Assembly: GCA_947304155.1 (NCBI GenBank)
Contig: CAMZAD010000003.1
Location: 7,345 to 71,344 of the forward strand
Length of the DNA stretch: 64,000 nucleotides
Reading direction: 5' to 3'
DNA from: an uncultured Candidatus Saccharibacteria bacterium
GTDB taxonomy: Bacteria; Patescibacteriota; Saccharimonadia; Saccharimonadales; Saccharimonadaceae
Shown here: one piece after another, positions 11,346 to 64,000 of the stretch
Position numbering within the stretch: the first letter of the stretch is position 1
How the letters are laid out: every line of letters starts with the position of its first letter
The notes under the pieces: generated by a model
What the model was told of the DNA's origin: nothing
Seen by the model: only the letters and a program-made list of their open reading frames with translations
The model's database searches: none
Program-made: the position numbers and the translations under genes

Positions 11346-12899
11346 TTATTTAATTTTATGAACTGAAAGATTTGGATTTTGCTCAACGAGCTCATATTTT
11401 TCAACCGATTCAAGGATGACTACCTCGCCGCTGCAGTTTACTCTAGTAGAATAGATGAAATAGATGTGGTCATATTTGTCGTAGAAGCGGGCGATAGCGG
11501 CGGCGATTTGATCGCTTGTAGCTTCATTAAAGTTTTGGCGCTTTAGAGCATCTTGATCATATTTTAAGTATTTTAGGTCGTTATAGAAAACGTCTTCTAG
11601 AATGTCATATTCAGTATAGTCTTTACCAAGAGAGGCACGTGTGGCTGGATTAAAGACCCTGTGACCGACAATATCTCCAACGATAAAGAGCGAGCCTTTT
11701 TCGTATCGCTTAACATTAATAGATGAGTTATTGCTGGCGTAGAAATGGTCATTTAAATCTCGGTATGCATTATAAAAACAAGATGGGATTGAGAATAGAA
11801 TTAGAAGTGTGAGGACGTAGTGGAAGAATGGTTTTTTGAGATTTGAATTTAAAAACTTTAAAGTCTCAATTTTATTTAGGAGCTTCGCAATTTTTGATTC
11901 CTTTTTTTCTGGCTCGAGATTAGAAATCCATAGAACGAGGAGCATCTCCAGAAGAAGTGTAGCAAATTTTTGTGGAAAGACGGCAAGGTTCGCATAGATA
12001 ATTGAGAAGCTTACAAGGAAGAACAAAATGCTACCAATTCCATAAAAAGCGTATTTCAGGCTGTTTGAGATAAGGCTCAAAATAAGGACGACGAAGATGA
12101 TTACAACCGCTGGAAGCATGATTTGATGATAAAACCCGACCGTCTCACCAATAATTGTCGCAATAAGATCTACAAAATTCTGAAAGATTGACATAGTAAA
12201 ACTCTGAGTAACAACACCGTGCTCAATTAACGTGCCAATAATAACAGGAACAACCGTAATGAATGATAGAATCTCTGGAATAAGGGCGGTGGCAATATTT
12301 GAGAGTTTCTGTTTTTTGTTCTGTTTGGTCTTTATTTCTTCAGCAATGAACCCGAGAGACAAGAGCCCGACGATGCCATACATCAGAATGTGGGTCTGGA
12401 GCATAAAAGCGAGCGCTAAGCCGTAAAAGAGTGGCTTTTTGTGGCGATTCTTATAAGCGAGACAGACGAGACAGACGGCAAGTGGGATTAAAGAGTAATC
12501 TCTTGCAATGACTGGCAAGAAATAGAAGAAGCAGGACGATAGCAAAAAGAAGGTTTTTGTTGGATACCCGAATGGCGCATATCTAAAGAAAAGGAAGACT
12601 GCGACGGCGACAAAGAATAGAGAGATGAAGCTCGCGGTAATTAGGGGGAAGCCGAGCTTAGAAAATGGAGCAAGGATGATTTGCCAAAGCAAAGGATGCG
12701 GCTCGACGGCATTTACTTCATAGATATTAGTTGGAGTGATTTTTTCAGAAAGAAGCCAAGAGATTGCCTCGTCATCCCAGGCTTCGTGAGTTAAAACTAG
12801 AGGAATGTGAATCAGGACAAAGATTGCCGCAGCAATGATTGCAATAAAAAGTTTGTGGACATTCGCCCAGTCCGCTATCTGTTTTAACCTCCTAAACAT
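11346..12899 (-). CDS. Polytopic membrane protein, probable GT-C-type glycosyltransferase
   Basis: N-terminal TM followed by THEAWDDEAISW (acidic first-loop motif as in GT-C enzymes), many TMs, and a soluble C-terminal domain. TATAAT lies 6 nt upstream of the ATG. Confidence 0.45.
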   Translation of the reverse strand: MFRRLKQIADWANVHKLFIAIIAAAIFVLIHIPLVLTHEAWDDEAISWLLSEKITPTNIYEVNAVEPHPLLWQIILAPFSKLGFPLITASFISLFFVAVAVFLFFRYAPFGYPTKTFFLLSSCFFYFLPVIARDYSLIPLAVCLVCLAYKNRHKKPLFYGLALAFMLQTHILMYGIVGLLSLGFIAEEIKTKQNKKQKLSNIATALIPEILSFITVVPVIIGTLIEHGVVTQSFTMSIFQNFVDLIATIIGETVGFYHQIMLPAVVIIFVVLILSLISNSLKYAFYGIGSILFFLVSFSIIYANLAVFPQKFATLLLEMLLVLWISNLEPEKKESKIAKLLNKIETLKFLNSNLKKPFFHYVLTLLILFSIPSCFYNAYRDLNDHFYASNNSSINVKRYEKGSLFIVGDIVGHRVFNPATRASLGKDYTEYDILEDVFYNDLKYLKYDQDALKRQNFNEATSDQIAAAIARFYDKYDHIYFIYSTRVNCSGEVVILESVEKYELVEQNPNLSVHKIK

Positions 12900-21500: not shown

Positions 21501-22485
21501 TTGATGGGCCCCAAGTGTCTGATGAAACGTGCTTGCCATCAAGCGTCATGTTCTCAACCGCAATCCTAGTCTTAGTCTCACCAGCATAAGTTGTCATAGT
21601 GGTTTTTTCTTTACAGTTGATTGGGGTGATGTTTGTTGTGGTTGTAGTAGTGGTAGTGGTTGCCGCAGCATCAGAACAGAACCAACCAAGCTTCTTACTA
21701 CTCCAAGTCATGCCACCATTTTGCGGCTTAGCATAGAACTCAGCGTTTTCCATGAATTTTGCCCTCGTAGTATAGTAGTCCGAATACATCGACGTAATCG
21801 AGCTCCCAAGTGGCACACCAAAAGTTGTGCCGTTATAGACATACGAGTCAGTTGAAGTGAGCATTCCATAATTACTCAGGTAAGTATCGAGTGTTGATTG
21901 TGGGATAATCGGTATGCCATTTGCATCCGTTGAGTAATTCCAGTTGCGTTCATTACCATGCACGTTATAGTTCATAGTTACTGGTCCAACTAGGCCAGAA
22001 TAAACTTTTTGACCAGTTCCTGAGAAAGTATAATACCTTGTAAAGTAGATGTATGCGTAGCCGCCGCCGGTCTTACAGCCCGTAATGCGGATTTGTTTTC
22101 CATCATCGTTAAGCTCGAGGTTTACACCAGGGTTTCTTAGGACGCCATTATATAGCTCGGAGACAGAAAAGTTATCCGACGGAGCAGGAACTTTAAGCCA
22201 GAAACCACCGTTACTACTTGCCGTAGTATCGCTCCAGTGATAGCAATAGTGGTGAACGTTAGTGCCTTCTTTACAAGTTGGAACAGCCGAACCTCCTTCG
22301 CCGGAGCCACCCGTCTGCGTAGTTCCACCAAAAGTCGTTGAGGTGCTACCGTGACCGTGATTGTTCTCTGCGTAAACAATACCACCAATCGCGAGAGCTG
22401 ATAACGCAATTAAGGCAACACCAACAAAATTGGAAATAATATGCCCAACTTTTTCTTTATTAATTCTCGGTTTGATTGATTTCAT
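18541..22485 (-). CDS. Giant (1314 aa) secreted Cys/Thr/Tyr/Asn-rich protein, candidate pilus-associated adhesin
   Basis: Start at MKSIKPRINKEK (GGTGGAGAA SD; ATG 22485 follows the upstream stop at 22487-22489). Signal/anchor is VGVALIALSALAIGGIVYA. No motif I can assign. Contains a TTTTTTTTT run. Confidence 0.6.
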   Translation of the reverse strand: MKSIKPRINKEKVGHIISNFVGVALIALSALAIGGIVYAENNHGHGSTSTTFGGTTQTGGSGEGGSAVPTCKEGTNVHHYCYHWSDTTASSNGGFWLKVPAPSDNFSVSELYNGVLRNPGVNLELNDDGKQIRITGCKTGGGYAYIYFTRYYTFSGTGQKVYSGLVGPVTMNYNVHGNERNWNYSTDANGIPIIPQSTLDTYLSNYGMLTSTDSYVYNGTTFGVPLGSSITSMYSDYYTTRAKFMENAEFYAKPQNGGMTWSSKKLGWFCSDAAATTTTTTTTTNITPINCKEKTTMTTYAGETKTRIAVENMTLDGKHVSSDTWGPSTSSYRYSTDYPADSGWTDGDKITYTLAKPGDSVHFLHEICVGDRYVRKATNTNTEYVSAVTDDKRTIVPAFSNHYVEIGANNIITGDDFSFVTNPIPQYNTTHVSPISDYTTPRRAIYNNHITTAKGIFATVTGTGNDITGSTDEYGISVISPSLTSYDFDCNAYGDFISGGYQVPDLAGAYCNSAAKTGVNSVVGQYVSQFHKFSSAKAYEKYKHTTATNCQCATSKTEPVISNMENTSVAGALSSHNGNMNGPTPSCPNQSPTSKTCGTYTYTYGTYAQHYNGVYEYVGTNDWSSACAPGHWHTNSTSVHGPNYCTQWSSATDYGYKIGGSWDSYDYGTPSFPTTFKYDTTVSAGSRQTKIADVFVPYNFETSIAASVSSEDIVYQGTSISTNFSWQILPRANKYTTKNASEKYATSTPADSKVVLIEFLISPTTKKESVNIAGNAKSTKDPCSYYSGTTGCHTIDDSVKGNLNMAGLGGTTGSRNLVSIIPDDKEYIGYKYCVAAGIYPSDSHDFKDTLKTQYSKGNTANSNPDGSAMDGGSYWNISNASCRTVAKKPTFQVWNGSIYTEGKINTSITQKRAGIGYGSTGGDTSGEGEVDEDTSGYSATQTIFGSWADYAVIAGNTVKGFGSGASLGYNNGYHYLKLAKSGLEATSFKQNSSPLTISNDNKDELGKSQINASTSVASVIEKMKARYRDKAASLSASLGTGSSKKLYTTSSALQYVYTNSDLKISEIKKGTVAGASSYNTAVINNSMLVKRFLSDAAISSGNVVDNTLIIYSTGTVTIDKNICYIGASELNKYCEQSYNPTKLSTYKNSKTTAPATLPQILIFANKINITQDVNRIDAWLFSETDVNTCSDFNLNSADSTVGFNPDGSLQFDMITAVKERSKCYRTLMVNGPVFAQNIILNRTAGAHHGYGTDTTNVLNRTVGDNVQDADSKNGSAAPAEIFNLRSDTYIWSRTQAGGNSEAIATYIRELAPRY

Positions 22486-22486
22486 T

Positions 22487-23299
22487 TTAGTTCTCCACCT
22501 GGCTACTATCAGAATCAACTTTTACGAATTTTTTGAGGTCGTTGTCGTAATAATACATGTTATTTTCCCTGTTTTTTCTCCAGGATTCGCAGTACTCGTT
22601 GCCTTTTTTGATGTCGCCGAGCTTACCATAAAGCCTACATTTAATGTGGTCATAGAAATATTTTTGCTTGTCATTTAGTGTGATTTTTTGCTTATCAAAA
22701 TCCTGGATAAAATCATTGGTTTCACTAGTGCAGTCATATTCTATCGCGACATCATAAAGATATAAAGTATAAAGAATTTTATGCTCTTTTGATGGGTTCT
22801 TTGTTTTTATTAACGCATTGCCATTATCGATAATTTTGGCGCAGCGTAGAATACTATCTTCGTAGATTCCTTCAATTATTTCAGCTTCAATGGTTGCGCT
22901 GAATTTCTTTTCAAGCAATTCGCCACTTGGAATATCGTCAATTTCATAATCGCCAATATTAATATCGGCTGGCTTCTCATAGTTGTCATCGTCAGGAACT
23001 GCGATTGGGACATCCTTTGGCGAAGTAAGACAAATTACCAAAAACACTGCGCCAACAATCAAGGCAACAAGAATGAGAAAAATGCCGAGTGAGAGGATTT
23101 TGTGTTTTTTAATCCAAAGGTTGCGGGAGTTGCGCCTTGCGTCGCGTTTTTCGCGCTTCAGTCTTTTCTTCTCAAGCTCCGCTTCGGAAGGGGCTGTTTT
23201 TTTAGTGTCTGAAGAATTAGCCTCTGGAAAAATTTCCCAAGGATGCTTATTTACCTCATTCACAGGAGGCTGCGAATTATCTTGACCTTCGTTCCCCAT
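22487..23299 (-). CDS. Bitopic membrane protein, unknown function (first gene upstream of the giant protein)
   Basis: Charged N-terminal region, TM ILSLGIFLILVALIVGAVFLVICL, and an extracytoplasmic Tyr/Cys-containing domain. Confidence 0.5.
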   Translation of the reverse strand: MGNEGQDNSQPPVNEVNKHPWEIFPEANSSDTKKTAPSEAELEKKRLKREKRDARRNSRNLWIKKHKILSLGIFLILVALIVGAVFLVICLTSPKDVPIAVPDDDNYEKPADINIGDYEIDDIPSGELLEKKFSATIEAEIIEGIYEDSILRCAKIIDNGNALIKTKNPSKEHKILYTLYLYDVAIEYDCTSETNDFIQDFDKQKITLNDKQKYFYDHIKCRLYGKLGDIKKGNEYCESWRKNRENNMYYYDNDLKKFVKVDSDSSQVEN

Positions 23300-51589: not shown

Positions 51590-53398
51590 TTAAACCATCT
51601 TGGTGTGATTAACGTTTGTACTTTCTCCATCATCAATATAACCACCACCCTGTTTTACAATATCCTCATTCTCACTTGCATGAGAGAAGTTAGCAGTGCG
51701 GAGCTCACGGTAAAGGGCTGATTTTTCAAACACCTCAGTATTACGACCAAAGGCTGAGACGCGACCTTTATCAAGCACAATTACCTGGTCACCCATCTTC
51801 ATAATATCTGGGTTATGAGTAATCACAATGATTGTATGGTCATCCTTCAAGTCCGAAAGAATTTCCAAAATACCTGGAACCTCAACTAGATCAATATTTG
51901 CAGTAACCTCATCAAATAACAAAACCTCTGCACCAGTGAGTAGGGCGCGAGCAATCGCAAGGCGCCTGAGCTGACCATTAGTTAAGATTTGGTCATCTTC
52001 ATCAATAATCGTATTAATACCATATGGAAGCCTCTCAATATCTTTATAAATACCGACTCGTTTTAATGCAGCAATTTGATGTTTTAAAGATGGGTCAATT
52101 AATGAAAGGTTATCTTTTATACTCATCTTAAAGATGAATGATTTTTGGAAGACACCAGAGACATTTGAAGAATAAACCTTCTTAGTGTAGTTATAGATTG
52201 ACTCATCATCAATTAAAATTGAGCCAGATTTTATACGATAGAGACGATAAAGCAAATTCATTACCGTAGTTTTACCGGCACCTGGGTAACCAACAATAAC
52301 AGTTATTTCATTCGGCAGGGCTTTAAAGCTAATATTTTTAAGAATCTTCTTACCCTTTGATTCATAAAAGACATGGTCAAAACGAATAACACCATTAATA
52401 TAGTCATTATCTACATCGCCATAAGAAATATCACTTGATTCATTTTTAAAGCTTAAGATATGCTCAATGCGTTTTATGCGAACTATGTAATGAGAAATAT
52501 TTAGGCTTTGCTCAAGAATGTTATCCGTGCGACTGGTTACCATTTCAAAATATGAAATCAAAAGAACAAGCTTATCAAGAGTCATCTTATTATTAAGAAC
52601 AAGGTAAGACAAGAAGACATAGAGCATAATCTTGCCAATATAGACAATCATTGGGAGAGTGCAATAACGAGATGAGATATAGCTATATTTTTTATCATAG
52701 TGTTGGTCATAGCAATAACGATAACGATCGAGTTTTTTAGTTAGATTTGGCATCATATTAAGTGACTTAATTTGCTTAAGACTGCCAAGCATCTGATTTA
52801 GAATATCAATAATCTTATCATTGTATTTTCTCGTTCCCTCATAATACTTTGCAATATTCCTGGAGTTATTATTCATCAAATAAAGATAAAGACCATCAAT
52901 CACGAGAGCAATTACCGCAACAATAATATTTATACTAGCAAAAATACAGAAGATTACCGCCAGTAAGACGAAGCCAGTTAAAACATCAGCAGTAGCATCA
53001 ACCGCATAAACTACATAGGATATATCTTCTGAACAGGTATCTGTAATTTTACCTCGATCAATCTTACTTATAATGCTGTCATTATTGGCAATGTGCTCAA
53101 AAAGATTTTGCTGGATAATATTGTAATAGTGATGAGAAAGATCCACATACATCATATAATTCCACTTTAGAGCAAGACATTGTGCTAAGTAAAATATAAT
53201 ATAAAGGATTACATAAATCCAAATTGCAGAAAATTCACCTTGATTACTTAAAACAGCAATAATACCAGCTGTTGCAATAGGTGGCAGAAGCGTGGTCAAA
53301 TAATAAAGCATATCGGAAATAAAAAGCTCAATCACTTGAAGCTTCTTCCCCGGCGCCAAAGCAAAGATTGATTTCAAAGAATCAATATAATTTCGCAT
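51590..53398 (-). CDS. Fused ABC exporter (N-terminal six-TM domain + C-terminal ATPase)
   Basis: Walker A GYPGAGKTTVMN, signature-like LTNGQLRRLAIARAL, Walker B LLFDEVTANID. TGtTAAAAT lies 6 nt upstream of the ATG. Confidence 0.8.
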   Translation of the reverse strand: MRNYIDSLKSIFALAPGKKLQVIELFISDMLYYLTTLLPPIATAGIIAVLSNQGEFSAIWIYVILYIIFYLAQCLALKWNYMMYVDLSHHYYNIIQQNLFEHIANNDSIISKIDRGKITDTCSEDISYVVYAVDATADVLTGFVLLAVIFCIFASINIIVAVIALVIDGLYLYLMNNNSRNIAKYYEGTRKYNDKIIDILNQMLGSLKQIKSLNMMPNLTKKLDRYRYCYDQHYDKKYSYISSRYCTLPMIVYIGKIMLYVFLSYLVLNNKMTLDKLVLLISYFEMVTSRTDNILEQSLNISHYIVRIKRIEHILSFKNESSDISYGDVDNDYINGVIRFDHVFYESKGKKILKNISFKALPNEITVIVGYPGAGKTTVMNLLYRLYRIKSGSILIDDESIYNYTKKVYSSNVSGVFQKSFIFKMSIKDNLSLIDPSLKHQIAALKRVGIYKDIERLPYGINTIIDEDDQILTNGQLRRLAIARALLTGAEVLLFDEVTANIDLVEVPGILEILSDLKDDHTIIVITHNPDIMKMGDQVIVLDKGRVSAFGRNTEVFEKSALYRELRTANFSHASENEDIVKQGGGYIDDGESTNVNHTKMV

Positions 53399-53414
53399 AT
53401 GTTTATTTTAACAT

Positions 53415-53436
53415 AAAAATAGCCCTGATGGGGCTA
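53415..53436 (-). terminator. Intrinsic terminator of rpmH
   Basis: TAGCCC-loop-GGGCTA hairpin (53420-53436) followed on the minus strand by T5. Confidence 0.65.
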
Positions 53437-53440
53437 CTTT

Positions 53441-53578
53441 TTAATAAGTAAGGCGTGCGCGACCTTTAATACGACGACGCTTCAAAACTTTTTGACCGTT
53501 TTTGGTAGCATTACGTTTCATGAAGCCGTGCTCTTGCTTGCGCTGACGCTTATGTGGTTGATAAGTACGCTTTGGCAT
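53441..53578 (-). CDS. rpmH: 50S ribosomal protein L34 (not in the ORF track because it is under 60 aa)
   Basis: The reverse strand translates to [45 protein letters not shown], the canonical L34 sequence pattern. Confidence 0.9.
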
Positions 53579-53823
53579 TATTACCCTTTTCTTTTATAAT
53601 ATTTGTAATTTATCTAATATTATACCTTAGTTTTCCCCATTTTTCAAGAAGTTTTCCACATAGTTTTTAGGGATACCCTAAAGCCTGTGGAGAACTCCCT
53701 TTCCCTGTTAAATTTTTTCATATTATACAATATTTAATTTTTATAGATAAAAAGCTGTGGAAAAGTCAAAATTATCTGCTATAATGTAGTCATCAAAGGT
53801 CGGTGGGATTAAGGAGGTAAGCT
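53579..53823. promoter_or_regulatory. oriC part 1 / dnaA promoter region (rpmH-dnaA intergenic) with DnaA boxes and an AT-rich tract
   Basis: TTTTCCACA at 53652-53660 (+), its complement at 53756-53764, TTCTCCACA complement at 53686-53694, AT-rich 53711-53750, TATAAT 53780-53785, and an AAGGAGG SD before ATG 53824. Confidence 0.7.
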
Positions 53824-55188
53824 ATGTTTGATGTGTGGAAAAATGTTTTAGCTGAGATTGAACAGCTTATTTCCCGCGAAAAATTCATCACTTATCTTCA
53901 AAAAACTACTCTTGAATCAATTGAAGATGGGCATATAAAAATTGGCGTGCCAAATGTGTTTATGAGCACAAATGTACGTAGACTTTTTGATAAAAATATT
54001 CGAGAGGCTCTTAAAAACAACAATATTGAGGTAGTTGATACAGAATATATAATCGTAAACACGACCAATAAGGTTAAAAAATCTCGCGAAGTTGATATTA
54101 GTAAACCAGAAAAGAAAACTTTTGATACAAAAAAAATCAGTAATACTCCTATTTATAGCACTATTTCCACAGGGTTGCAGCCAGATTACACCTTCGACAC
54201 CTTTGTTGTAGGTAGTAATAATGATTTGGCTTTCTCGGTTGCTAAGCGTATCTGCGAAGAACCTGGTGGAAAATATAATCCTTTCTTCCTTTATGGTAAG
54301 TCCGGCCTTGGTAAAACCCACCTTGTTCAAGCAATCGGCAATGAACTCTTAAAAAAGAATCCTAAATTAAAAATTCTCTATACCCCAGTAAATCATTTTT
54401 ACGACGACTTTATTAATTCAATTCGTAAAAATCAGCAGGATTTCTTTAAGAAAAAATATGGAAACCTTGATGTTTTAATTATTGATGATTTTCAATTAAT
54501 TACCGGTAAAGAGAAAAGTCAGGAGGAATTCTTCAACCTCTTTAATGACATGCACCTTTCTAATCGTCAGATCATTATTACATCAGATCGCTTACCAAGT
54601 GAAATTAAGACGGTTGACCCAAGGTTAGCTTCAAGGCTAACCCAGACCGGTGCCTATGATATTCAACTTCCTTCTTTTGAGGATCGCTGCGCAATCTTAA
54701 GTGCGAAGGCTGAGCTTAATCATGTAAATATTGAACGCGAAGCAATCGAATATATTGCAGAAAACGTTAAAACAAACATTCGCGACCTTGGTGCTGAATA
54801 TGATAAGCTACTCGCTTATGCTGATTTACGCGGCGTAACCCCACTTGAGATTATTAATTCCGGCTATAGTAACCCATCCACTTCTGTAGCAAGACACAAT
54901 ACAGTTACTCCAAAGAAGATTATTGATAAGACTGCAAAATTTTATAGCATGGAAACTTCGGTCATGCTCAGCAAAAGTCGCGTTTCAAATATCAAGAATG
55001 CCCGCCAAGTAGCGATGTATCTTATGCAAAGAGAACTTGGACTTTCTACCACTAAAATTGCGCGCGAACTCGGCATGAAAGACCACACCACTATTATGAA
55101 TGGTCTTGATCGCATCGAAAGTTCTATGAAGATGGATTTTAAACTCCGTGAAGAGATTAACCAAATAAGAGAAAAAATCTATGAATAA
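53824..55188 (+). CDS. dnaA: Chromosomal replication initiator DnaA
   Basis: AAA+ Walker A GKSGLGKTHL, Walker B LIIDDFQ, and the C-terminal DNA-binding helix (ARQVAMYLMQRELGLSTTKIARELGMKDHTTIMNG). Confidence 0.97.
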   Translation: MFDVWKNVLAEIEQLISREKFITYLQKTTLESIEDGHIKIGVPNVFMSTNVRRLFDKNIREALKNNNIEVVDTEYIIVNTTNKVKKSREVDISKPEKKTFDTKKISNTPIYSTISTGLQPDYTFDTFVVGSNNDLAFSVAKRICEEPGGKYNPFFLYGKSGLGKTHLVQAIGNELLKKNPKLKILYTPVNHFYDDFINSIRKNQQDFFKKKYGNLDVLIIDDFQLITGKEKSQEEFFNLFNDMHLSNRQIIITSDRLPSEIKTVDPRLASRLTQTGAYDIQLPSFEDRCAILSAKAELNHVNIEREAIEYIAENVKTNIRDLGAEYDKLLAYADLRGVTPLEIINSGYSNPSTSVARHNTVTPKKIIDKTAKFYSMETSVMLSKSRVSNIKNARQVAMYLMQRELGLSTTKIARELGMKDHTTIMNGLDRIESSMKMDFKLREEINQIREKIYE

Positions 55189-55435
55189 TGTGGAAAAGTA
55201 TGCGAAAAACTTTGCGGAAAAATCGTGGAAAAAATATGGAAAAGTTTTAGTGGAAAACTTCCAAAAAGTCGCTTTTACACAAAAATATCGTGAATGTGGG
55301 AAAGTTTTACATAGGTTTATCGCAAAGTTTTACACAACTAAAATCAGCCTTTTATATCTGTTAAATTCGAGTTATACACATTATCCACATAGCCTACTAC
55401 TATTACTACTAAATTATTAATAAAGGAGGAGAAAA
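55189..55435. promoter_or_regulatory. oriC part 2 (dnaA-dnaN intergenic): dense DnaA-box array plus an AT-rich unwinding-like tract
   Basis: Reverse-oriented boxes at 55189-55197, 55213-55221, 55224-55232, 55235-55243, 55249-55257. Forward boxes TTTTACACA 55273-55281 and 55328-55336, TTATACACA 55372-55380, perfect TTATCCACA 55381-55389. AT-rich tactac repeats at 55393-55425. Confidence 0.8.
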
Positions 55436-56539
55436 ATGGAACTAAACGCAAACCAAAGTAAGCTTGCTAAGGCCCTATCGGTTGTTAGTCGTGTAGCTGC
55501 TGGTAGTAAAGCAACTTTACCAATTTTAAACAATGTTCTTATAAGAGTAATCGATAATAAAGTAACATTAACCGCAACCAATCTAGATATGGCTGTAGTT
55601 GATTACTTACCAACTTCAAGCTCTAAAAATGGAGAAATCACTGTACCAGCAAGACTTTTAGCTGATTTTGTGGCAAACCTACCTAAGGGGGATGTAAAAA
55701 TTTCTGTAAAAGACACAAAAGTTACTATCTCTAGTGGAAAATATAAATCAGTTATGAATGGTTCCCTGGTTGATGATTTTCCTGAACTCCCTGAACTTGA
55801 TGAGAAAAAATCTGTAATCTTTAGAATTCCAGTTGATGATTTTAAAAATGGAATGAATAGTGTTAAAATCACTACCTCAAATGACACAACTAGACCTGCT
55901 CTTACTGGTGTATATTTTAATACTTATGAGTCAGGCCTTTACATTGCTGGTACAGATGGGTATAGATTGGCTGAGAAAAAGTTGATTAGTGGTATTTCGA
56001 GCGAAGTAAAAGCAATTGTTCCAACGAGTTCAATTAATGAGGTGCTTAGCTCAATTTCCGACGATGTGGAAGAAGTGGAAATTTTATTTGATGAATCACA
56101 AGTCTGCTTTAGAATGGGTGAAATTGAAATTACATCAAAGTATATTGATGGCTCATTCCCTGATTATCGTAAGTTAATTCCAGAAAAAACTGAAGTTGAT
56201 CTTGAACTTAAAAAATCTGAACTTCTTCGCGTAACTAAACTTGCAGCTTTATTTGCAAAGGAAGTCGGAGGTTCAATTATTCTTGAAACTTCAACTGAAA
56301 AAGGTGCTTTAGTAGTATCGTCGGTTGCTAATGAATTTGGTGAGAATGATTCGGAAATTGAAACTGAAATTTCTGGTGATGCAAGAGTAGTGCTTAATTC
56401 TAGATTCTTACTTGACGCTTTAAATGTGCTTGATGATGAAGATATTAAGGTTGGAATTTCTGGAGCACTTCAGCCAATTCGAATTGAAAATACTAAGAAA
56501 CAAGATTATATTCACATAATAATGCCACTGAAGGGGTAA
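55436..56539 (+). CDS. dnaN: DNA polymerase III beta sliding clamp
   Basis: Typical length and pattern (LPILNNVLI..., TATNLDM, RPALTGVYF..., TDGYRLA, IDGSFPDY). AAAGGAGGAG SD upstream. Confidence 0.95.
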   Translation: MELNANQSKLAKALSVVSRVAAGSKATLPILNNVLIRVIDNKVTLTATNLDMAVVDYLPTSSSKNGEITVPARLLADFVANLPKGDVKISVKDTKVTISSGKYKSVMNGSLVDDFPELPELDEKKSVIFRIPVDDFKNGMNSVKITTSNDTTRPALTGVYFNTYESGLYIAGTDGYRLAEKKLISGISSEVKAIVPTSSINEVLSSISDDVEEVEILFDESQVCFRMGEIEITSKYIDGSFPDYRKLIPEKTEVDLELKKSELLRVTKLAALFAKEVGGSIILETSTEKGALVVSSVANEFGENDSEIETEISGDARVVLNSRFLLDALNVLDDEDIKVGISGALQPIRIENTKKQDYIHIIMPLKG

Positions 56540-56542
56540 AAA

Positions 56543-57571
56543 TTGATTATAAAATCTATTAGTTTGAATAATTTTCGCTGCCACGAGAGTTTTACTTTTG
56601 ATTTTAAAAAGAAAACTTCCGTGATAGTTGGTGAAAATGGTAGTGGAAAAACTTCGATTTTAGAAGCAATTTATGAGGCGGCATGTGGAAAAAGTTTTCG
56701 TGCGGTGGACGCGGATATTTTGAAGCGTGATATGGATTATTATCGGATTGAGCTTCTTTATCTTAATGGTGAAAAAACTATAGTAGTTTATGGTGATGAT
56801 GGGAATGGCGGAATAAAAAAGAATTTTTTAGTGGGTGGTAAAAAATATTTGAGGCTGCCAAAAAAATATCGCTATCCGATTGTTTTATTTTTGCCGGATG
56901 ACTTGCATTTAATTAGCTCTTCCCCAACTAGAAAGCGTGAATTTTTTGATCGTATTGTGGCGGAATTCTATGATACTTATTCGACTGTTTTAAATCGTTA
57001 TGAAAAAGCTTTAAAACAACGAAATGATTTATTGAAACAATGTGCGGAGTATTCTGAAGAAGTGGTGTCACAAATGATTTTTTCATGGAATGTGATGCTT
57101 AGTAAATATGGAACGGAAATTCGTGAAAAGCGTAAAAAAGTAGTTGAAGAAATTAATCAAAGGCTTACGGAAACTTATCGCTCGATTGCAAAAAATCAGG
57201 ATGAAGTTTTTGTGGAATATAAAATTAATGATGGTGAGTGCTCTGAAAGTGAATATCTTAAAAAACTTGAAATGAGTCTTCGTCGAGATTTAATTTTGGG
57301 GCACACAAGTTTTGGTGTACATCGTGATAGTTATGAATTTTTGTTTAATGGAACAGATGCAAATGGTTCGGCGAGTCGCGGTGAAGTCCGTTCAATTATT
57401 TTAGCTTTAAAATTTATTGAAGCACAATTAATTTTTGAGAAGAATGGTAAAAAACCAATTGTGTTGCTTGATGATGTTTTTTCGGAACTTGATGAAACTA
57501 GACAAAAAAGTTTAACGAGAAATTTTAAAGACAATCAAGTTATTATTACAAGTGTTGAAGTTAGTGAGTAA
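56543..57571 (+). CDS. recF: DNA replication/repair protein RecF
   Basis: Walker A GENGSGKTSILEAIY, signature-like GSASRGEVRS, Walker B LLDDVFSELD. TTG start 3 nt after the dnaN stop. Confidence 0.9.
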   Translation: MIIKSISLNNFRCHESFTFDFKKKTSVIVGENGSGKTSILEAIYEAACGKSFRAVDADILKRDMDYYRIELLYLNGEKTIVVYGDDGNGGIKKNFLVGGKKYLRLPKKYRYPIVLFLPDDLHLISSSPTRKREFFDRIVAEFYDTYSTVLNRYEKALKQRNDLLKQCAEYSEEVVSQMIFSWNVMLSKYGTEIREKRKKVVEEINQRLTETYRSIAKNQDEVFVEYKINDGECSESEYLKKLEMSLRRDLILGHTSFGVHRDSYEFLFNGTDANGSASRGEVRSIILALKFIEAQLIFEKNGKKPIVLLDDVFSELDETRQKSLTRNFKDNQVIITSVEVSE

Positions 57572-58090
57572 TTATTTTTTATAAATTACGTTGTTATTTT
57601 GGTCTGTAATTGTAACTAAAAGATTGAACATATCTGATTTTGAGTCTGTAGTTAAGAAATATTTTATTCCGGCGTCTGAAACTAATTCTGCAGTGGTAAT
57701 ATCTTGATTTTCTTCATTGATATTAATAGTGTCTTTAATGACACTAATTCTTTTTATGCCCTCAAGCTTATTAAAATATTCTAAAATGTTAGTTGTTAGT
57801 ATTTCGTATTGTTTGTAACTAAAACCAATTGAAATAAAATCATCAAAACCAACAAGCTCGACACTTTCTGGAAAGTCACCAATTTCAGATTCTTGATTAA
57901 TTTTATAGATAGTTTGGCCTGAAAGCGGGTCGGTTTCTTCTGATGTTTCCCCACCAGTTGTGAAAGTGGTGGTGCTTGTAAGGATGAGGATAATTACTAT
58001 TAAAACTACAATAATTAGAATAAAGAAAACTGGAATGATGAAACGATATTTACGGAGGAAATCTTGAAAATTTAAATTCTTATTTTTCAT
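57572..58090 (-). CDS. Small N-terminally membrane-anchored protein, copy 1 (partner of hydrolase copy 1)
   Basis: MKNKNLNFQDFLRKYRFIIPVFFILIIVVLIVIILIL TM plus a ~120-aa external domain. Paralogue of 59527-60048. 4-nt ATGA overlap with the upstream gene. Confidence 0.6.
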   Translation of the reverse strand: MKNKNLNFQDFLRKYRFIIPVFFILIIVVLIVIILILTSTTTFTTGGETSEETDPLSGQTIYKINQESEIGDFPESVELVGFDDFISIGFSYKQYEILTTNILEYFNKLEGIKRISVIKDTININEENQDITTAELVSDAGIKYFLTTDSKSDMFNLLVTITDQNNNVIYKK

Positions 58091-59499
58091 CTTTTAATTC
58101 CTTTGATATTATAGCTTGACATGCCGCTTCGTTTAAAAATGCCATTTACGACAGCAGTAGGATCATAAGCTTTATTTCCTCTTCTTGTAGAGTCGGCGAT
58201 AAGCCATTTTCCATCCTCGCTTCTTCCGTAAATACCGATATAATGTCCGCCTGTGGAAAATGGAGCTGCGCCGGTTCCACTAGTGTGAATCATCCACCCA
58301 TCATTTAGTGCTTCATTAATTACATTGACAGTATCACCAATATCACGAACGGTGATGTTTTTGTATTGTAGACCATAATGTTCTGCTAAAACTTTAGTAA
58401 TACTCCAAGATGAGCCTGCCCAGTTTCCATTGGAGTCTTTAGCATGCTGTCCGGCTTTTCCGGCAACATCTGCGGTATCACTTGGCAGAATTTCCCTGCC
58501 AAGCAAAGCGGTTGCTAACATAGCAAAAGAGGTTGGCCCACAACCTGATTCTGAAATAGATGTACCGGTTTTTCCATGAATTCCATCTGGACCATACATA
58601 AGATTTCCCCAGCGACTATCACTTTGATAGTATTGTGGAAAATCGCCCGTATAAGGCGATGTACTGTAGGAACATTGAATAACTCCGCCTGTTCCAAAGT
58701 CAACTTGGCTTAAGTCTACTGGAGATATACCAGCAGCTTGTTTGGCGTAGTTAAGACGGGTTGTAAAGGCTTTGTAAGCGGCTTTTGATAATTCTGGATG
58801 AGCAATAAGATTTGCGTATGTTTTAGGATCTTGTATGTTGTCTACGCCGTCCGCAGTGGTTTGATATGAAGAAGCTGGAGTTTCGTAGTCCCTAAATACA
58901 ATAAAGGTGGCTTCTTCGAGGCTAGTTGAGTTTAAGCGGGTTCTGTATGCTGTAAGTTCATTATTTAAGAAGGCTAGTTGTACTGATATGTTATTAACTT
59001 TTCCGTCATTTGAGCTGTTTGCAAAATCTTGAAGGGCTTTTACACGGCCTTTTGAAGTCCATTGTGCAATGCCAAAGCCACCTTTAAAAGTTTTTTCACC
59101 GCTAGTATTGATTAGACGGAAGTTATCATCAACTGTGATATTTTTATTTTCTGGATATTTTTTCTCGAGAGCAAGAGGATTAATGTGGGATTCGGCCATC
59201 AAGTTGCCGATGATAGCATAGGCGGCGTTGGTGGTAAAGCCTTTATTTAAAAGAAAGGCGAGGGCAATGGATTGATTGTCGCCATTTGAGTTAGGATTAT
59301 TTGTAAATGAGAGGTAGGTTGAAGTGGCGCCGTTACATGCACCAAAACCACCTGGGTCGTAAAAAATGATGTGGCTGTTTATTTGTTTGTCGGAGAGACT
59401 GTCGACTTTGTTGGCATAAACTGCAGTTGGTGAGATGAGACAAAATGTAAGAATAAGAAAAGAAGAGATAAAAACATTAAAAAATTTTTTGACCTTCAT
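58087..59499 (-). CDS. Secreted two-domain peptidoglycan hydrolase, copy 1 (lysozyme-like N-domain + C39-like/papain-like Cys peptidase C-domain)
   Basis: Signal peptide. AIIGNLMAESHINP...FKGGFGIAQWTS resembles the phage-tail-lysozyme-type domain. YYQSDSRWGN...ESGCGPTSFAMLA...GGHYIGIYG resembles a C39-like peptidase domain. Confidence 0.65.
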   Translation of the reverse strand: MKVKKFFNVFISSFLILTFCLISPTAVYANKVDSLSDKQINSHIIFYDPGGFGACNGATSTYLSFTNNPNSNGDNQSIALAFLLNKGFTTNAAYAIIGNLMAESHINPLALEKKYPENKNITVDDNFRLINTSGEKTFKGGFGIAQWTSKGRVKALQDFANSSNDGKVNNISVQLAFLNNELTAYRTRLNSTSLEEATFIVFRDYETPASSYQTTADGVDNIQDPKTYANLIAHPELSKAAYKAFTTRLNYAKQAAGISPVDLSQVDFGTGGVIQCSYSTSPYTGDFPQYYQSDSRWGNLMYGPDGIHGKTGTSISESGCGPTSFAMLATALLGREILPSDTADVAGKAGQHAKDSNGNWAGSSWSITKVLAEHYGLQYKNITVRDIGDTVNVINEALNDGWMIHTSGTGAAPFSTGGHYIGIYGRSEDGKWLIADSTRRGNKAYDPTAVVNGIFKRSGMSSYNIKGIKR

Positions 59500-59526
59500 A
59501 TGCTATTATTATAGCATAAGCGGGTA

Positions 59527-60048
59527 TTATTTCTTATAAACAGTGGTATTGTTTTGGTCTATGATTTCAAAAGATAGCTCAAGAATGCTTTCTTTTGTGT
59601 CGGTTTTTAATGTGTAGGTTTGGTTTGTGTTTGTGATGACTTTAGTATAACGAATAGAATCATTGTCAGTATATTCCATACTGTCTTTTATAATACTAAC
59701 TCTTGTAATACCTTTTTCATTAAAGAAGGTTGAGATATTTGTGGTTAAAAAGTCATATTGTGTGTATGTAAAGCCGGTAGTGATATAAATATCAAAACCA
59801 ACTAATTCAATATAGGACGTTCCTTCTGGATTTTCATTTTCTTGATTAATTTTATAAATGGTTTGACCTGAGAGTGGGTCGACTTCTTCTGATGCTTCCC
59901 CGCCTGAAACTAGTGTGGAATCATTTGTAGGTGAGAAAAATGCAAAGAATACTATAACGATAATAACTATTGGAATAATAAAAAGAATTGGGATAATAAA
60001 ACGGTGTTTGCGAAGAAAATCACGTTGGGTTAAATTTTTGTTTTTCAT
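59527..60048 (-). CDS. Small N-terminally membrane-anchored protein, copy 2
   Basis: MKNKNLTQRDFLRKHRFIIPILFIIPIVIIVIVFFAFF TM. Collinear with copy 1 (DPLSGQTIYKINQE shared). 4-nt overlap with the upstream hydrolase. Confidence 0.6.
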   Translation of the reverse strand: MKNKNLTQRDFLRKHRFIIPILFIIPIVIIVIVFFAFFSPTNDSTLVSGGEASEEVDPLSGQTIYKINQENENPEGTSYIELVGFDIYITTGFTYTQYDFLTTNISTFFNEKGITRVSIIKDSMEYTDNDSIRYTKVITNTNQTYTLKTDTKESILELSFEIIDQNNTTVYKK

Positions 60049-61391
60049 AGCCTAATTCCGTTGATGTTTGTGTTACCGTTACTGTATCCAAGAATGCCAT
60101 TAATAACTATTTGTGGGCTATAAGCTTTATTTCCCCTACTAGAATCGGCAACTAACCATTTTCCATCTTCGGTTACCCCATAGATTCCAATAAAGTGTCC
60201 GCCTTCAGAAAATGGAACAGATCCTCTTCCACTAACATGAATCATCCAGCCTTGAGAAAGTTTTTCGGTGATTCTTTGTCCAATCTCACTAGCGTTTTTG
60301 GCGGTGATTTTTTCATATTTAAGTCCATAGTGGTTAGCGAGTATTTGGGTAATTTTCCAGGAAGAGCCCTCCCATTTTCCGTTTGATTGAGCGTGCATGC
60401 CTGCTTTTCCGGCAATGTCGGCAGTTTCACTTGGTAAGATTTCTCGTTTAAGTAATGCGGTTGCTAACATGGCAAAAGAAGTTGGCCCGCAACCTGATTC
60501 TGAGATAGTCGTTCCAGTATTTCCATGTATTCCGCTTGGGCCAAACATGAGATTTCCCCAACGTTTATCATTCTGATAGTATTGTGGGAAGTTTCCGGTG
60601 TATGGGGCTGTGCTATAGCTAGAACAATATAATGAGGATGAAGTGCTTGGAGAGAATGAAGATGAGAGGCCGCCAACTTGTTTTGCATACTTTAGACGAG
60701 TATTAAAAGCGGAGTATGCTGCTCTAGATAATTCTGGATGAGCCATGAGATTTGTGTATGATTCAGGGGCGCGAATATTATTTACACCATCTGTGGTGGT
60801 TTGGTATGAAGAGGCTGGTCTTTCGTAGTCTTTAAATACGATAAAGGTAGCTTCTTCAAGGCTGGAAGCGGTATTTAAATTAGTCTTATGTTGGTTTAGT
60901 TCTTGAACCAGAAACTTAGCTTGAACCACAATGTCGTTGACTTTTCCGCCATTTGTATTATTTGCGAAATTTTGAAGATTTTGAACGCGACCAATCGAGG
61001 TCCATTGCGCAATGCCGAAACCACCTTTGAAGGTTTTCTCGTTGTTGGAAATTAAACGGAAGCTGTCGTCTACTGTAATGCTTTTGTTTTCTGGATATTT
61101 TTTCTCGAGAGCAAGAGGATTAAGGCCAGATTCGCTTTGTAAATTACCAATAACTGCATATGCTGCGTTAGTAGTGTAACCATTGCTAATTAATAAGTTG
61201 TATACAATAGAAACATTATCTCCAAAACCTACAGTACTGTTTTCACAGTTGCTGCTGCTTGGGTCGAAGTAGAAAATATTACTATTGTCAAAGAAATCCC
61301 AGTCTTCCTCACTTAAGGCGAAAACTTGGAGTGGAGCAAGTGAGAGTGAGAGTGAAAAAATGGCGCTTAAAATAATACGAAGTTTTTTCAT
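60045..61391 (-). CDS. Secreted two-domain peptidoglycan hydrolase, copy 2
   Basis: Signal peptide MKKLRIILSAIFSLSLSLAPLQVFA. Same GNLQSESGLNP...GGFGIAQWTS and ESGCGPTSFAMLA...GGHFIGIYG motifs as copy 1. Confidence 0.65.
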   Translation of the reverse strand: MKKLRIILSAIFSLSLSLAPLQVFALSEEDWDFFDNSNIFYFDPSSSNCENSTVGFGDNVSIVYNLLISNGYTTNAAYAVIGNLQSESGLNPLALEKKYPENKSITVDDSFRLISNNEKTFKGGFGIAQWTSIGRVQNLQNFANNTNGGKVNDIVVQAKFLVQELNQHKTNLNTASSLEEATFIVFKDYERPASSYQTTTDGVNNIRAPESYTNLMAHPELSRAAYSAFNTRLKYAKQVGGLSSSFSPSTSSSLYCSSYSTAPYTGNFPQYYQNDKRWGNLMFGPSGIHGNTGTTISESGCGPTSFAMLATALLKREILPSETADIAGKAGMHAQSNGKWEGSSWKITQILANHYGLKYEKITAKNASEIGQRITEKLSQGWMIHVSGRGSVPFSEGGHFIGIYGVTEDGKWLVADSSRGNKAYSPQIVINGILGYSNGNTNINGIRL

Positions 61392-64000
61392 ACTGCGTAG
61401 CTCCTGTTTCTGAGATCAAAGTACTCGGTTTTATTTGGTAGGATTGCTGCAAGATTCTCGAAAGTTGAAGAAAGATTGAATGAAACATTTGTTTCACTCT
61501 TCTCTACTGGTGGTTCATACTCTGCAAGGAATTGATAATAATCGATAAGAGCAATAAACTCTTCGGCTTCTTCTTTAGTTTTACCGGTGTATCTTGCGAG
61601 TAAGCCAGCCTCACTGGTGTCGATTGGATTTTTCTCGTAGTATTCTTCTTTGTAGGCGGTAGTCGGGTTGACTATATTGCCGTTCTCGTCGGTAACTTCG
61701 TCGAGTTTCATTTGAGTAGCGATGCGCATATCTTCGGTATAGTGTTGGAGATAGACGAGCTCTTCGTAGTGTATATTGTTTTCTTTGTCTAGAACACACC
61801 ATTTACCAGTGGCCCAACCTTCATTTTCTATACTCATGTCTTCAACTGCATTAGCAATGTCAATAATGTCGTTTAGAATTGGAAGATTATCTCCAAATCC
61901 GATGCTAGTATTAAGAGCGTTGGCGATATTTGCATCGTAAATACCAAATGGCGAATCACGCTCGTCGCAGAACATGATTTTTTTAGCAAGAGTTGAACCA
62001 TTTTTTACTTTAATTCTGCCATTCGCATCTTTTACGGTGTTATTACTGATTACTTTTTGATATTCTGATTCATTATAAGTGGTATTAAAGAAGTTTGTAT
62101 CTGTAGCGGTGATTTCTACGCCATACATATCACAGGCGGCGCCAATTCCATCAAGATACTGGCAGGTTTCTTTGTCTCCAAAAACGGTGTCATAGGCAAC
62201 TTCGGCAGCAACCTTAGTATTTTCTTCTCCGTCTGCAAACACACTACTGCCGAGATTTGCAAGAATATGGCCGAAGGAATTTGTAGTGATGGTTGAGAAT
62301 GAGCGAGTGTTAGAGAGGAGTGGATTTTTGCTTGTTATAACAGCAAGTTTGCTGGCAATTGAACCAAGGAAGGTGTCTGGACTTGAAATATCGAACGGAC
62401 TCTTGTTTTTGCGCTCAAGCTCAGACTCGTAGTTGTTGGCAATGGCGGTGGTGTTGGCATATGCTGTGGCGACGGATTTTGTAGCAAGCATTTGACCTGA
62501 GGTGCTACGTGCAATCTTTTTATTTGAGAGAGCGGCACCTTCAACGAAGGTTTCGCCAGCAGGGATACCTGCGAGGCTTTCGGCGGTATTTTCAAAGAGG
62601 GTTTTAGCAATTTTTGGTATGAGCGCACTAAGCATACCAGTGATGGTTCCTGCTGCTGCGACATTAATAATTGTAGTTTTAGCAATTGTGGCGATAGATT
62701 TTATAAGACCGCCGCTAAGAATTCCAGCTACAATGCTAATTACAGCACTGGTGGCTTTAATGCCACCACAGGCTTTTACGCTTACTTTATTAATAGCAAA
62801 AGCTGTACCAGTGGCTAGGAAGGCAGATCCAATAGAGTAATTTTTTGTCTTTTTAATGTCTGGGTTAGCGCCGGCGAGAACATTAGCAAAGCCTTCTGCT
62901 TGAATTGGCGCACCGGTAACTGTTTTTTCTTCTCCATCTGTGACATCTACATAGGTTGTCGTGGCGGGCTCGTTAATAAAGTTTAAGAAGGCATTCATAT
63001 CGGCGGCGTTACCTTGGCCGGCTTTAGTCTTACTGACGTTTTCGATATCACCCATGAAGTAATTGATAGCTTGATAAATTTGGGCAGCAGCAATCGAAAC
63101 TGAGATCATATTGGCGATTCTTAGTGCCATACAGCCAGCAGCGGCAGTATTGGCGGCATGTCCAGCAACACGGCTAGCTGTGGTATCTAAAAAATTTCTG
63201 GCTTTATCCGTGGAGGATAATCTGGAATCTGAAGTGGTGTTACTAATACTTTCGCTGGCTATACGCTCCATAACTGGATTGCCATCACTGTCGAAGCGTG
63301 GGTTACCATCACTGTCGAGTGCCTGACGTTCAGAGAATGTGTCCCCTATCCCGGTGCTAGTAGAATTGTCAAAACGAGAGTTGCGAATTTTGTTGTATTC
63401 AGTTTTGTCACCAGTTTTGTAATTGCGGTAGATGTTGCGGGAAAGGCCGAGTTTAGTGAATGCAAAGGTGGCGCTGGCATCAAAGAAGTTTGAAGTGCGG
63501 CCACGTTTAGCTTTAGTGAAGGCTTCGCGGAAGGCAAGGTTAGTATCGTAGGTGTTTTTGAAGTTTGAAGAATCAATGGTTTGGCCTTGGAAGCTCAAGG
63601 TAAAACCCTCAGCTTTTGAACCATTAACTGTGACGCCTTGGGTTTCAAAGCGATCTTTGAGATATTTTGGAAAGTTGCCGCGTTTGCCGGCAAGAAGTTC
63701 TTCGGTGATACGGATGCTGTTTTCAGTGTATGAACCAAACATGGTATCGGTTGCACGAGTAATAAGGGTCTCAATCTGGTTGCCGAGTGAACCTACAAAA
63801 AGGAAGGCAATAGCAAGACCAGCGAGGGCGCCAATGATGGCGAGCAAAGCTGGAGATTTTTTGCCGAGGGATTTTAATTTGCCGCTTTTCTTTAAGTTTT
63901 TACTAAGAGCAGCGGAACGGGCGGCTTTGCTTCCCCGTCCAGTGTATTTGAAAGAATTTTCGATATCAGAAGCAGAGCTGGTTGATTTTTCTGGAGCTTC
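61388..64000 (-). CDS. Giant membrane protein (at least 870 aa, 5' end outside the window), unknown family; candidate channel/scaffold of a secretion or wall-breaching apparatus
   Basis: The reading frame stays open from 63847 to the window edge (…EAPEKSTSSASD…KSPALLAIIGALAG), so the ORF-track TTG start is probably internal. It has an N-terminal TM, central hydrophobic Gly/Ala/Ile-rich blocks, and a 4-nt overlap with the downstream hydrolase. Confidence 0.6.
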   Translation of the reverse strand, partial: EAPEKSTSSASDIENSFKYTGRGSKAARSAALSKNLKKSGKLKSLGKKSPALLAIIGALAGLAIAFLFVGSLGNQIETLITRATDTMFGSYTENSIRITEELLAGKRGNFPKYLKDRFETQGVTVNGSKAEGFTLSFQGQTIDSSNFKNTYDTNLAFREAFTKAKRGRTSNFFDASATFAFTKLGLSRNIYRNYKTGDKTEYNKIRNSRFDNSTSTGIGDTFSERQALDSDGNPRFDSDGNPVMERIASESISNTTSDSRLSSTDKARNFLDTTASRVAGHAANTAAAGCMALRIANMISVSIAAAQIYQAINYFMGDIENVSKTKAGQGNAADMNAFLNFINEPATTTYVDVTDGEEKTVTGAPIQAEGFANVLAGANPDIKKTKNYSIGSAFLATGTAFAINKVSVKACGGIKATSAVISIVAGILSGGLIKSIATIAKTTIINVAAAGTITGMLSALIPKIAKTLFENTAESLAGIPAGETFVEGAALSNKKIARSTSGQMLATKSVATAYANTTAIANNYESELERKNKSPFDISSPDTFLGSIASKLAVITSKNPLLSNTRSFSTITTNSFGHILANLGSSVFADGEENTKVAAEVAYDTVFGDKETCQYLDGIGAACDMYGVEITATDTNFFNTTYNESEYQKVISNNTVKDANGRIKVKNGSTLAKKIMFCDERDSPFGIYDANIANALNTSIGFGDNLPILNDIIDIANAVEDMSIENEGWATGKWCVLDKENNIHYEELVYLQHYTEDMRIATQMKLDEVTDENGNIVNPTTAYKEEYYEKNPIDTSEAGLLARYTGKTKEEAEEFIALIDYYQFLAEYEPPVEKSETNVSFNLSSTFENLAAILPNKTEYFDLRNRSYAV

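Follow-up and report, generated by a model that had tools for sequence, protein, structure and literature searches.

The 64,000-nucleotide (nt) stretch of an uncultured Candidatus Saccharibacteria chromosome analyzed here (hereafter the window) ends in a block of five minus-strand genes that converge on recF: a gene for a very large membrane protein (hereafter giant), two genes for secreted hydrolases (hyd1 and hyd2), and two for small anchored proteins (sm1 and sm2) (Table 1). The relation of this block to type IV secretion systems (T4SSs) is our subject. A reading made previously from the DNA letters without database searches (the sequence-only reading) had described giant as a protein of at least 870 codons open to the window edge, and we found that frame, its N-terminal transmembrane (TM) segment ALLAIIGALAGLAIAFLFVGSLG, and both hydrophobic strings that had been quoted from it. 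The full-length protein, P0001, has 914 amino acids (aa) and is 100% identical to the part inside the window, so that only 44 residues lie outside. The genes had also been described as chained by 4-nt overlaps, which is correct for the giant/hyd1, hyd1/sm1, and hyd2/sm2 junctions but not for sm1/hyd2, where a 27-nt gap intervenes. At the far end, the stop codon of recF (57569-57571, TAA) directly abuts that of sm2 (57572-57574, TTA on the plus strand) without an intervening base, as had been noted. The unit of hydrolase plus small protein occurs twice in the block, with 59.7% identity between hyd1 and hyd2 and 47% between sm1 and sm2.

Table 1. Genes of the block and its convergent neighbors, in window coordinates.
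Feature	Coordinates	Strand	Remark or basis
giant gene	61388-64000, runs past window edge	minus	open frame of 870 codons, codons 45-914 of 914
hyd1, secreted bifunctional peptidoglycan hydrolase, 448 aa	60045-61391	minus	Pfam PF18013 + PF13529
sm1, N-terminally anchored protein, 173 aa	59527-60048	minus	only 2 database homologues
hyd2, second secreted bifunctional hydrolase, 470 aa	58087-59499	minus	Pfam; comparison with locus L057
sm2, anchored protein, 172 aa, last gene of the operon	57572-58090	minus	L057 orthologue 92% identical
dnaA	53824-55188	plus	
dnaN	55436-56539	plus	
recF	56543-57571	plus	

Both hydrolases have signal-peptide-like N-termini and two recognizable domains, in agreement with the earlier description of a Sec-secreted, two-domain peptidoglycan hydrolase. 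One is a Phage_lysozyme2 domain (PF18013; E 1.2e-23 in hyd1 and 3e-19 in hyd2), and the second is C39-like (Peptidase_C39_2, PF13529; E 8e-10 in hyd1 and ~1e-9 in both), unlike CHAP and NlpC/P60 domains. The GNLQSES motif of hyd1 and the related GNLMAES motif align with the GNMQSES stretch of phi29 gp13, whose glutamate is reportedly the catalytic residue of gp13 (E45). The cysteine peptidase motifs SGCGPTS (Cys) and GGH(F/Y)IGIYG (His) are present in both proteins, and the lysozyme domain of hyd1 aligns with that of PrgK from the conjugative plasmid pCF10 (BLASTP E 8e-7). By these motifs and domains, hyd1 and hyd2 are predicted to be active wall hydrolases of the VirB1/PrgK type found in T4SSs.

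The surroundings of the block in other genomes were read from 51 loci of GTDB species representatives, collected with an alignment of giant; neighboring open reading frames (ORFs) were called with a simple longest-ORF heuristic, and their products were clustered by BLASTP. All homologues of giant came from Saccharibacteria (named either Ca. Saccharibacteria or Nanosyncoccus). The immediate upstream neighbor of giant is virB4 in 41 of the 51 loci. Forty loci extend far enough to include recF, which lies downstream in convergent orientation, within 0-5 genes, in every one of them (40/40), and in 36 of these 40 a hydrolase gene follows giant. The canonical order begins with four to six divergent T4SS pilin genes, a ~1050-aa polytopic protein, PrgI (VirB3-like), a ~290-aa TraC/TrsD-like protein, and VirB4 (~606 aa), and continues with giant, a hydrolase, and an anchored protein with a PEGA domain; a further hydrolase and small protein often come next, and the convergent recF-dnaN-dnaA closes the series. 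Pfam assignments of the neighbors include P-loop_TraG (8e-29), AAA_10, and DUF87 for VirB4, PrgI (PF12666, 7e-13), T4SS_pilin (PF18895, 5e-12), and PEGA (6e-9). The polytopic protein (ORF cluster 10), which adjoins PrgI as prgH does in pCF10, has 6-9 hydrophobic segments. In the closest relative (83% identity), a C-terminal fragment of VirB4 (P-loop_TraG/AAA_10) lies 65 nt upstream of giant. The whole arrangement, including a flanking Hsp20 gene, also appears on L063, an independent contig with pre-existing annotation whose family member is only 32% identical: Hsp20, six pilins, a 986-aa protein, PrgI, TraC-like, VirB4, giant (1134 aa), a lysozyme+SGNH protein, a 318-aa protein, and recF-dnaN-dnaA.

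The conserved convergent neighbors dnaA, dnaN, and recF mark the location of the cluster as origin-proximal, and Pfam annotates the same trio beside the block in loci L001, L057, L061, and L063. The sequence-only reading had placed a monoderm-type T4SS core in a core location beside recF and had proposed looking for secretion ATPases upstream and for conserved synteny. The relatives bear this out, with VirB4, PrgI, TraC-like, polytopic, and pilin genes immediately upstream of giant. The accompanying remark that no ATPase, relaxase, or integrase is visible also holds for the parts of the window that were examined: none of the relatives' T4SS gene clusters is present in positions 1-53000, where the large ORFs scanned were housekeeping genes, envelope genes, or ORFs without a Pfam match. 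Because virB4 lies directly upstream of giant in relatives and nothing of the cluster occurs in 1-53000, the missing ATPase is best read as an edge effect, with virB4 predicted just past position 64000. PrgI, the polytopic protein, and the pilin array, seen in the relatives, would likewise fall beyond that position in the source genome.

A cluster of this kind is already known. In Southlakia epibionticum ML1, dnaA, dnaN, and recF (SEML1_0001 to 0003) are followed on the opposite strand by 0004 (249 aa), 0005 (PEGA, 211 aa), 0006 (643 aa, PF18013, two lysozyme-like domains and a cysteine protease), 0007 (a 1113-aa hypothetical protein with a C-terminal DD-peptidase-like, M15, domain), 0008 (VirB4), 0009, 0010 (PrgI), 0011, 0012 (NTF2-like, non-essential), 0013 (TrbL/VirB6-like by structure), the pilins 0014-0019, and Hsp20 (0020) (Wang et al., 2023, PMC10633639). 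Transposon sequencing (Tn-seq) in that organism found nearly all genes of the T4SS cluster to be essential or growth-defective, including 0004-0011 (PMC10633639). A T4SS clade that is origin-proximal and lacks a relaxase was subsequently described across Patescibacteria, in which virB4 is directly followed by genes for homologues of peptidases and lysozymes (Quinonero-Coronel et al., 2025, PMC12102498), and a 2025 review counts the Saccharibacterial system as an established, if recent, addition to the T4SS superfamily. Given the match to the Southlakia cluster and to this clade, we consider it likely that the five genes close the chromosomal, origin-proximal T4SS operon of a Saccharibacterium at its promoter-distal end, the system being the same as SEML1_0004-0019. 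By analogy, the operon would be related to the conjugation machinery of monoderms (mating pair formation type FATA, MPF-FATA), would lack a relaxase, and would be required for epibiotic growth, a requirement known for Southlakia alone, by Tn-seq. The suggestion that the module serves an epibiotic life rather than conjugation agrees with this published work (PMC10633639, PMC12102498), and the alternative suggestion of a new wall-breaching module falls away, as the cluster has been published. The system is thus already known, and the family of its large membrane protein is uncharacterized.

That protein begins with a Lys/Arg-rich cytoplasmic tail followed by one strong TM segment at aa 95-117, where Kyte-Doolittle hydropathy has a strong peak (95-113, score 2.75); beyond it lie a moderately hydrophobic helical hairpin (~454-509) and a weaker helix (~330-352). 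Conserved regions comprise an alpha/beta domain (~120-230), long helices, and a Cys-containing C-terminal domain (~650-870) with the conserved pairs C657/C667 and C722/C779. A profile search of 1.84 billion representatives returned 1037 clusters, defined at 50% identity, at E up to 1e-3, of which 450 scored at or below 1e-30; a third homology search with a diverse giant alignment added just four sequences. Giant has no match in Pfam, NCBIfam, or PHROGs, and its profile gave no hit to PDB sequences at E up to 10. An AlphaFold2 (AF2) model built from 19 close homologues (predicted local distance difference test, pLDDT, 47.5) was too poor for Foldseek. A second model, from 37 diverse homologues, reached a pLDDT of 65.4 and a predicted template modeling score (pTM) of 0.68, with confident blocks at ~120-230, 340-450, 520-600, and 650-870. 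Compared with 350,542 PDB chains, this model, in which the hairpin has low confidence, gave a best Foldseek E of 0.52.

When 37 distant family members were scanned with Pfam, the sole matches were inserted SGNH or metallophosphoesterase domains, and these were sporadic. P0088 (L061 345-3686), P0164, and P0106 carry such an inserted SGNH/GDSL hydrolase or calcineurin-like phosphoesterase domain, and in L061 recF comes immediately after the SGNH-bearing giant and a hydrolase gene of its own is missing, as though giant had taken up the enzymatic function by fusion. These insertions, the DD-peptidase-like end of the Southlakia protein, and the conserved Cys pairs suggest that the C-terminal half of giant is extracytoplasmic. 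The C-terminal domain was also considered as a cryptic M15/LAS peptidase and rejected, there being no conserved His among its invariant columns. From the model and these features we infer that giant is an N-terminally anchored exoplasmic scaffold with a membrane-dipping hairpin. By position it would correspond to SEML1_0007, the homology being suggested by position, size, and breadth of the family.

The sequence-only reading had instead taken giant for a VirB6-type channel subunit like Orf15 of Tn916, ConG of ICEBs1, or TcpH of pCW3, and the three gene types for the counterpart of Orf15-Orf14-Orf13. The order of genes speaks for this: VirB4, a large membrane protein, a bifunctional hydrolase, and a small anchored protein, joined by 4-nt overlaps, follow one another as orf16-orf15-orf14-orf13 do in the Tn916-type element on pCF10, and some VirB6 proteins are known to be extended by large hydrophilic domains (PMC12857230). 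The protein itself shows no clear resemblance to VirB6, however. By the same hydropathy measure, Orf15, PrgH, and the cluster-10 protein have six to nine segments, where giant has one strong TM and two to three weak helices. Giant does not match the Pfam TrbL family (PF04610), its model had no PDB match at E below 0.5, and hhalign of two giant-family profiles against Orf15, PrgH, PrgK, and the cluster-10 protein gave nothing significant (probability at most 0.9% for Orf15 and PrgH, a weak test with single-sequence templates). Moreover, the relatives encode a separate polytopic ~1050-aa protein beside PrgI, whose Southlakia counterpart, SEML1_0013, is the one that is TrbL/VirB6-like by structure. 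We therefore regard a VirB6 identity for giant as improbable. The T4SS part of the proposed reading stands; the assignments of giant to VirB6 and of the small proteins to VirB8 are unsupported.

A large protein with a Gly/Ala-rich hydrophobic central block, next to lysozymes, could also be the residue of a prophage tail or lysis module, with giant as tape-measure protein and the hydrolases as tail lysins. PF18013 is named 'phage tail lysozyme', and through this domain the hydrolases match PHROG endolysin and tape-measure families as well as phi29 gp13; the resemblance of giant's central block to a tape measure is superficial. Giant itself is without a PHROG match, tblastn found no match to it in 50,697 phage records or 72,556 plasmids, and Foldseek of its model against BFVD returned nothing significant (best E 0.03, TM-score 0.06). 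No phage genes occur in any of the 51 loci, and the chromosomal position is fixed across the phylum. With these searches the tape-measure reading is effectively refuted, and we give a prophage origin almost no credence.

The small proteins conform to the description of an N-terminally anchored protein of ~172 aa. In both, inspection of the sequence places a hydrophobic anchor segment at aa 17-39, after a short basic N-terminus, and a predicted ectodomain of ~130 aa behind it. A database search with the two returned only two homologues, and neither matched Pfam, NCBIfam, or PHROGs. Their proposed VirB8-like nature is unsupported: neither sequences nor profiles relate them to PrgL, Orf13, or Pfam VirB8, with an hhalign probability of 0.1% against PrgL and Tn916 Orf13 and insignificant scores against the other small-protein clusters of the locus family. 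A profile of sm1, sm2, and the L057 orthologue did give marginal matches to PEGA proteins (E 5e-4 to 7e-4 among ~870 proteins), in alignments that extend through the TM segment into the PEGA region, and sm1 holds the slot that PEGA-domain proteins occupy in relatives. Possibly, then, sm1 and sm2 are degenerate PEGA proteins.

Comparison with the closest relative bears on the local history of the duplicated units. The order there is giant, an SLT/NlpC-type hydrolase, a PEGA protein, orthologues of hyd2 (85% identical) and sm2 (92%), and recF. In the window, the first pair (SLT/NlpC-type hydrolase and PEGA protein) has been replaced by a diverged copy of hyd2 and sm2. The first 59 aa of hyd1, comprising the signal peptide and EEDWDFFDNSNIFYFDP, share 83% identity with the N-terminus of the closest relative's first-position hydrolase, which is of the SLT/NlpC type (compared with L055 3417-4097), and the sequence beyond them is 60% identical to hyd2. 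Hyd1 is thus a chimera, with its first 59 residues from the displaced first-position hydrolase and a hyd2-like remainder. First-position hydrolases of many loci keep this ~55-aa leader despite differing catalytic domains, and PrgK carries KDWFFVNPAFYFP just ahead of its lysozyme domain. This stretch might act as a signal for docking or targeting. Across the family, loci have from zero to two hydrolase/small-protein units, with shuffled catalytic domains; modular units of such fast turnover would fit adaptation to the chemistry of the host's wall or of the bacterium's own.

Several points weigh against a T4SS assignment of the block. The virB4 gene lies outside the window, its place being taken from relatives. 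In five GTDB-representative loci (eight with the redundant L002, L003, and L009) another gene lies immediately upstream of giant; in the L001/L008 lineage the block adjoins recF and has divergent housekeeping genes upstream, with no virB4 there; and the distant family members in L062 and L064 have no T4SS gene within 10 kb. The scaffold role and the topology proposed for giant are tentative, the AF2 model is of moderate confidence (pLDDT 65) with a poorly predicted hairpin region, and the putative homology to SEML1_0007 rests on position, size, and family breadth.

The members in L062 (10001-13189) and L064 (816-3968) are ~1050 aa long, match the family profile at E ~1e-76 to 1e-80, and adjoin dus and alpha/beta-hydrolase genes; they form a stand-alone paralogue subfamily away from T4SS genes. 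Together with the L001/L008 case, they leave a low probability that the giant family can act independently of a T4SS. A broader alternative is that the module remodels the cell's own wall or surface during growth, division, or host attachment, and merely lies beside T4SS genes near the origin. The persistence of the giant-hydrolase-small block at recF without an adjacent virB4 in L001/L008, the distant paralogues standing alone beside dus, and the free variation in number (zero to two) and type of the hydrolase/small-protein pairs would all suit it. Set against this are the same-strand adjacency to virB4, which holds in 41 of 51 loci and extends to lineages with just 30-35% identity, the colinearity with prgJ-prgK-prgL of pCF10, and the finding that the corresponding Southlakia genes are essential along with the other genes of their cluster. 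We judge a role confined to the cell's own envelope to have little chance of being right.

If the block belongs to the T4SS operon, its parts can be assembled into a working model. VirB4 would power a channel in the membrane, to which the polytopic VirB6-like protein and PrgI contribute. Giant would be anchored by its N-terminal TM segment, with two large conserved domains outside the cell joined by the membrane-dipping hairpin, and would serve as an extracytoplasmic scaffold or stalk in place of the non-catalytic N-terminal part of PrgK in pCF10. The Sec-exported lysozyme and cysteine-peptidase enzymes, which would correspond to the catalytic part of PrgK and to VirB1 function, would open the peptidoglycan locally, acting on the epibiont's own wall and possibly on that of the host. 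The small anchored proteins, perhaps degenerate PEGA proteins, would evolve fast and assist each hydrolase as accessory partners. A bolder version, which we think unlikely, makes giant a Patescibacteria-specific T4SS component without counterpart in other T4SSs, an extracellular stalk or translocon whose hairpin (~454-509) might insert into the host envelope. Were it true, the epibiont's VirB4-driven channel and pilus would connect with the host cytoplasm, so that macromolecules could be taken up or delivered, and the quick exchange of hydrolase/small-protein pairs would adjust the machine to the chemistry of the host's wall.

Some features of the surrounding DNA are recorded here in their own right. 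Between dnaA and dnaN lies a candidate 79-aa ORF (55181-55420, plus strand) with an 8-nt overlap with the dnaA stop; within it, at 55381-55389, is a perfect DnaA box, TTATCCACA. The ORF may be a genuine small gene or a part of oriC that happens to read as one. A small ORF at this position was also called in L057, L061, and L063 and is present in several ORF clusters. G+C content is 0.33-0.36 around dnaA-dnaN-recF (52001-58000) and 0.39-0.44 elsewhere, and GC skew is strongly positive from ~56 kb on (0.26 in 56-58 kb); the drop in G+C and the turn in skew are consistent with a replication origin around 52001-58000. On the other side of the origin region in L063, from position 23402 and after rpmH, rnpA, yidC, and a gene for an R3H-domain protein, a 1314-aa protein with a PF18013 lysozyme and an SGNH domain constitutes a second large wall hydrolase near the origin. 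Elsewhere in the window, three large minus-strand ORFs have no Pfam match at E up to 1e-5 (18541-22518, 1325 aa; 937-2841, 634 aa; 11346-12899, 517 aa), and they sit among envelope-biogenesis genes (PMT, Wzy, a sugar transferase, a Mur ligase, and an LGFP-repeat protein).

With the Saccharibacterial system, a T4SS has for the first time been reported as essential to the survival of its own bacterium. The block described here is no new kind of system; it adds increments to the published work and leads for dissecting the machine. The residual interest lies in the uncharacterized giant family and in the fast-evolving hydrolase modules. The gene that follows virB4 belongs to a large, phylum-wide family with neither a domain model nor a structural relative, and it should not be equated with VirB6.

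Among known systems, SEML1_0004-0019 of Southlakia is the nearest. It belongs to the same phylum and occupies the same site, directly after dnaA-dnaN-recF on the opposite strand, and the two share the gene order of VirB4, a ~900-1100-aa protein without a Pfam match, a PF18013 lysozyme/cysteine-peptidase, and small exported or anchored proteins; the window's relatives also have the PrgI, TraC-like, polytopic, and pilin-array genes, and even Hsp20. The differences lie in the components. Unlike SEML1_0007 as described, the window's giant has 914 aa and no C-terminal M15 domain. The window encodes two lysozyme+C39 hydrolases and two lineage-specific proteins of 172 and 173 aa, where Southlakia has one triple-domain hydrolase, a PEGA protein, and a prealbumin-like protein.

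The prgH-prgI-prgJ-prgK-prgL genes of pCF10 are colinear with the cluster, encoding a VirB6-like protein, PrgI, VirB4, a ~870-aa TM-anchored hydrolase, and a ~200-aa anchored protein. PrgK combines PF18013 with a CHAP cysteine peptidase and is comparable to hyd1 and hyd2, as the alignment of the lysozyme domains indicates. Here, unlike in pCF10, one gene encodes the anchor or scaffold part (giant) and another the catalytic part (the hydrolase), and giant has no detectable similarity to the N-terminal half of PrgK. No relaxase, coupling protein, or adhesin lies nearby, and the relatives have VirB2-like pilins. The mobile elements Tn916 (Orf16-Orf15-Orf14-Orf13) and ICEBs1 (ConE-ConG-CwlT) share the succession of ATPase, large membrane protein, bifunctional lysozyme/peptidase, and small anchored protein, and the 4-nt overlaps as well. 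Orf15 and ConG differ from giant in being polytopic and VirB6-like; the peptidase of Orf14 and CwlT is of the NlpC/P60 (C40) type, whereas that of hyd1 and hyd2 is C39-like. Tn916 and ICEBs1 are mobile, with a relaxase and an integrase, whereas the present locus is a fixed part of the chromosome.

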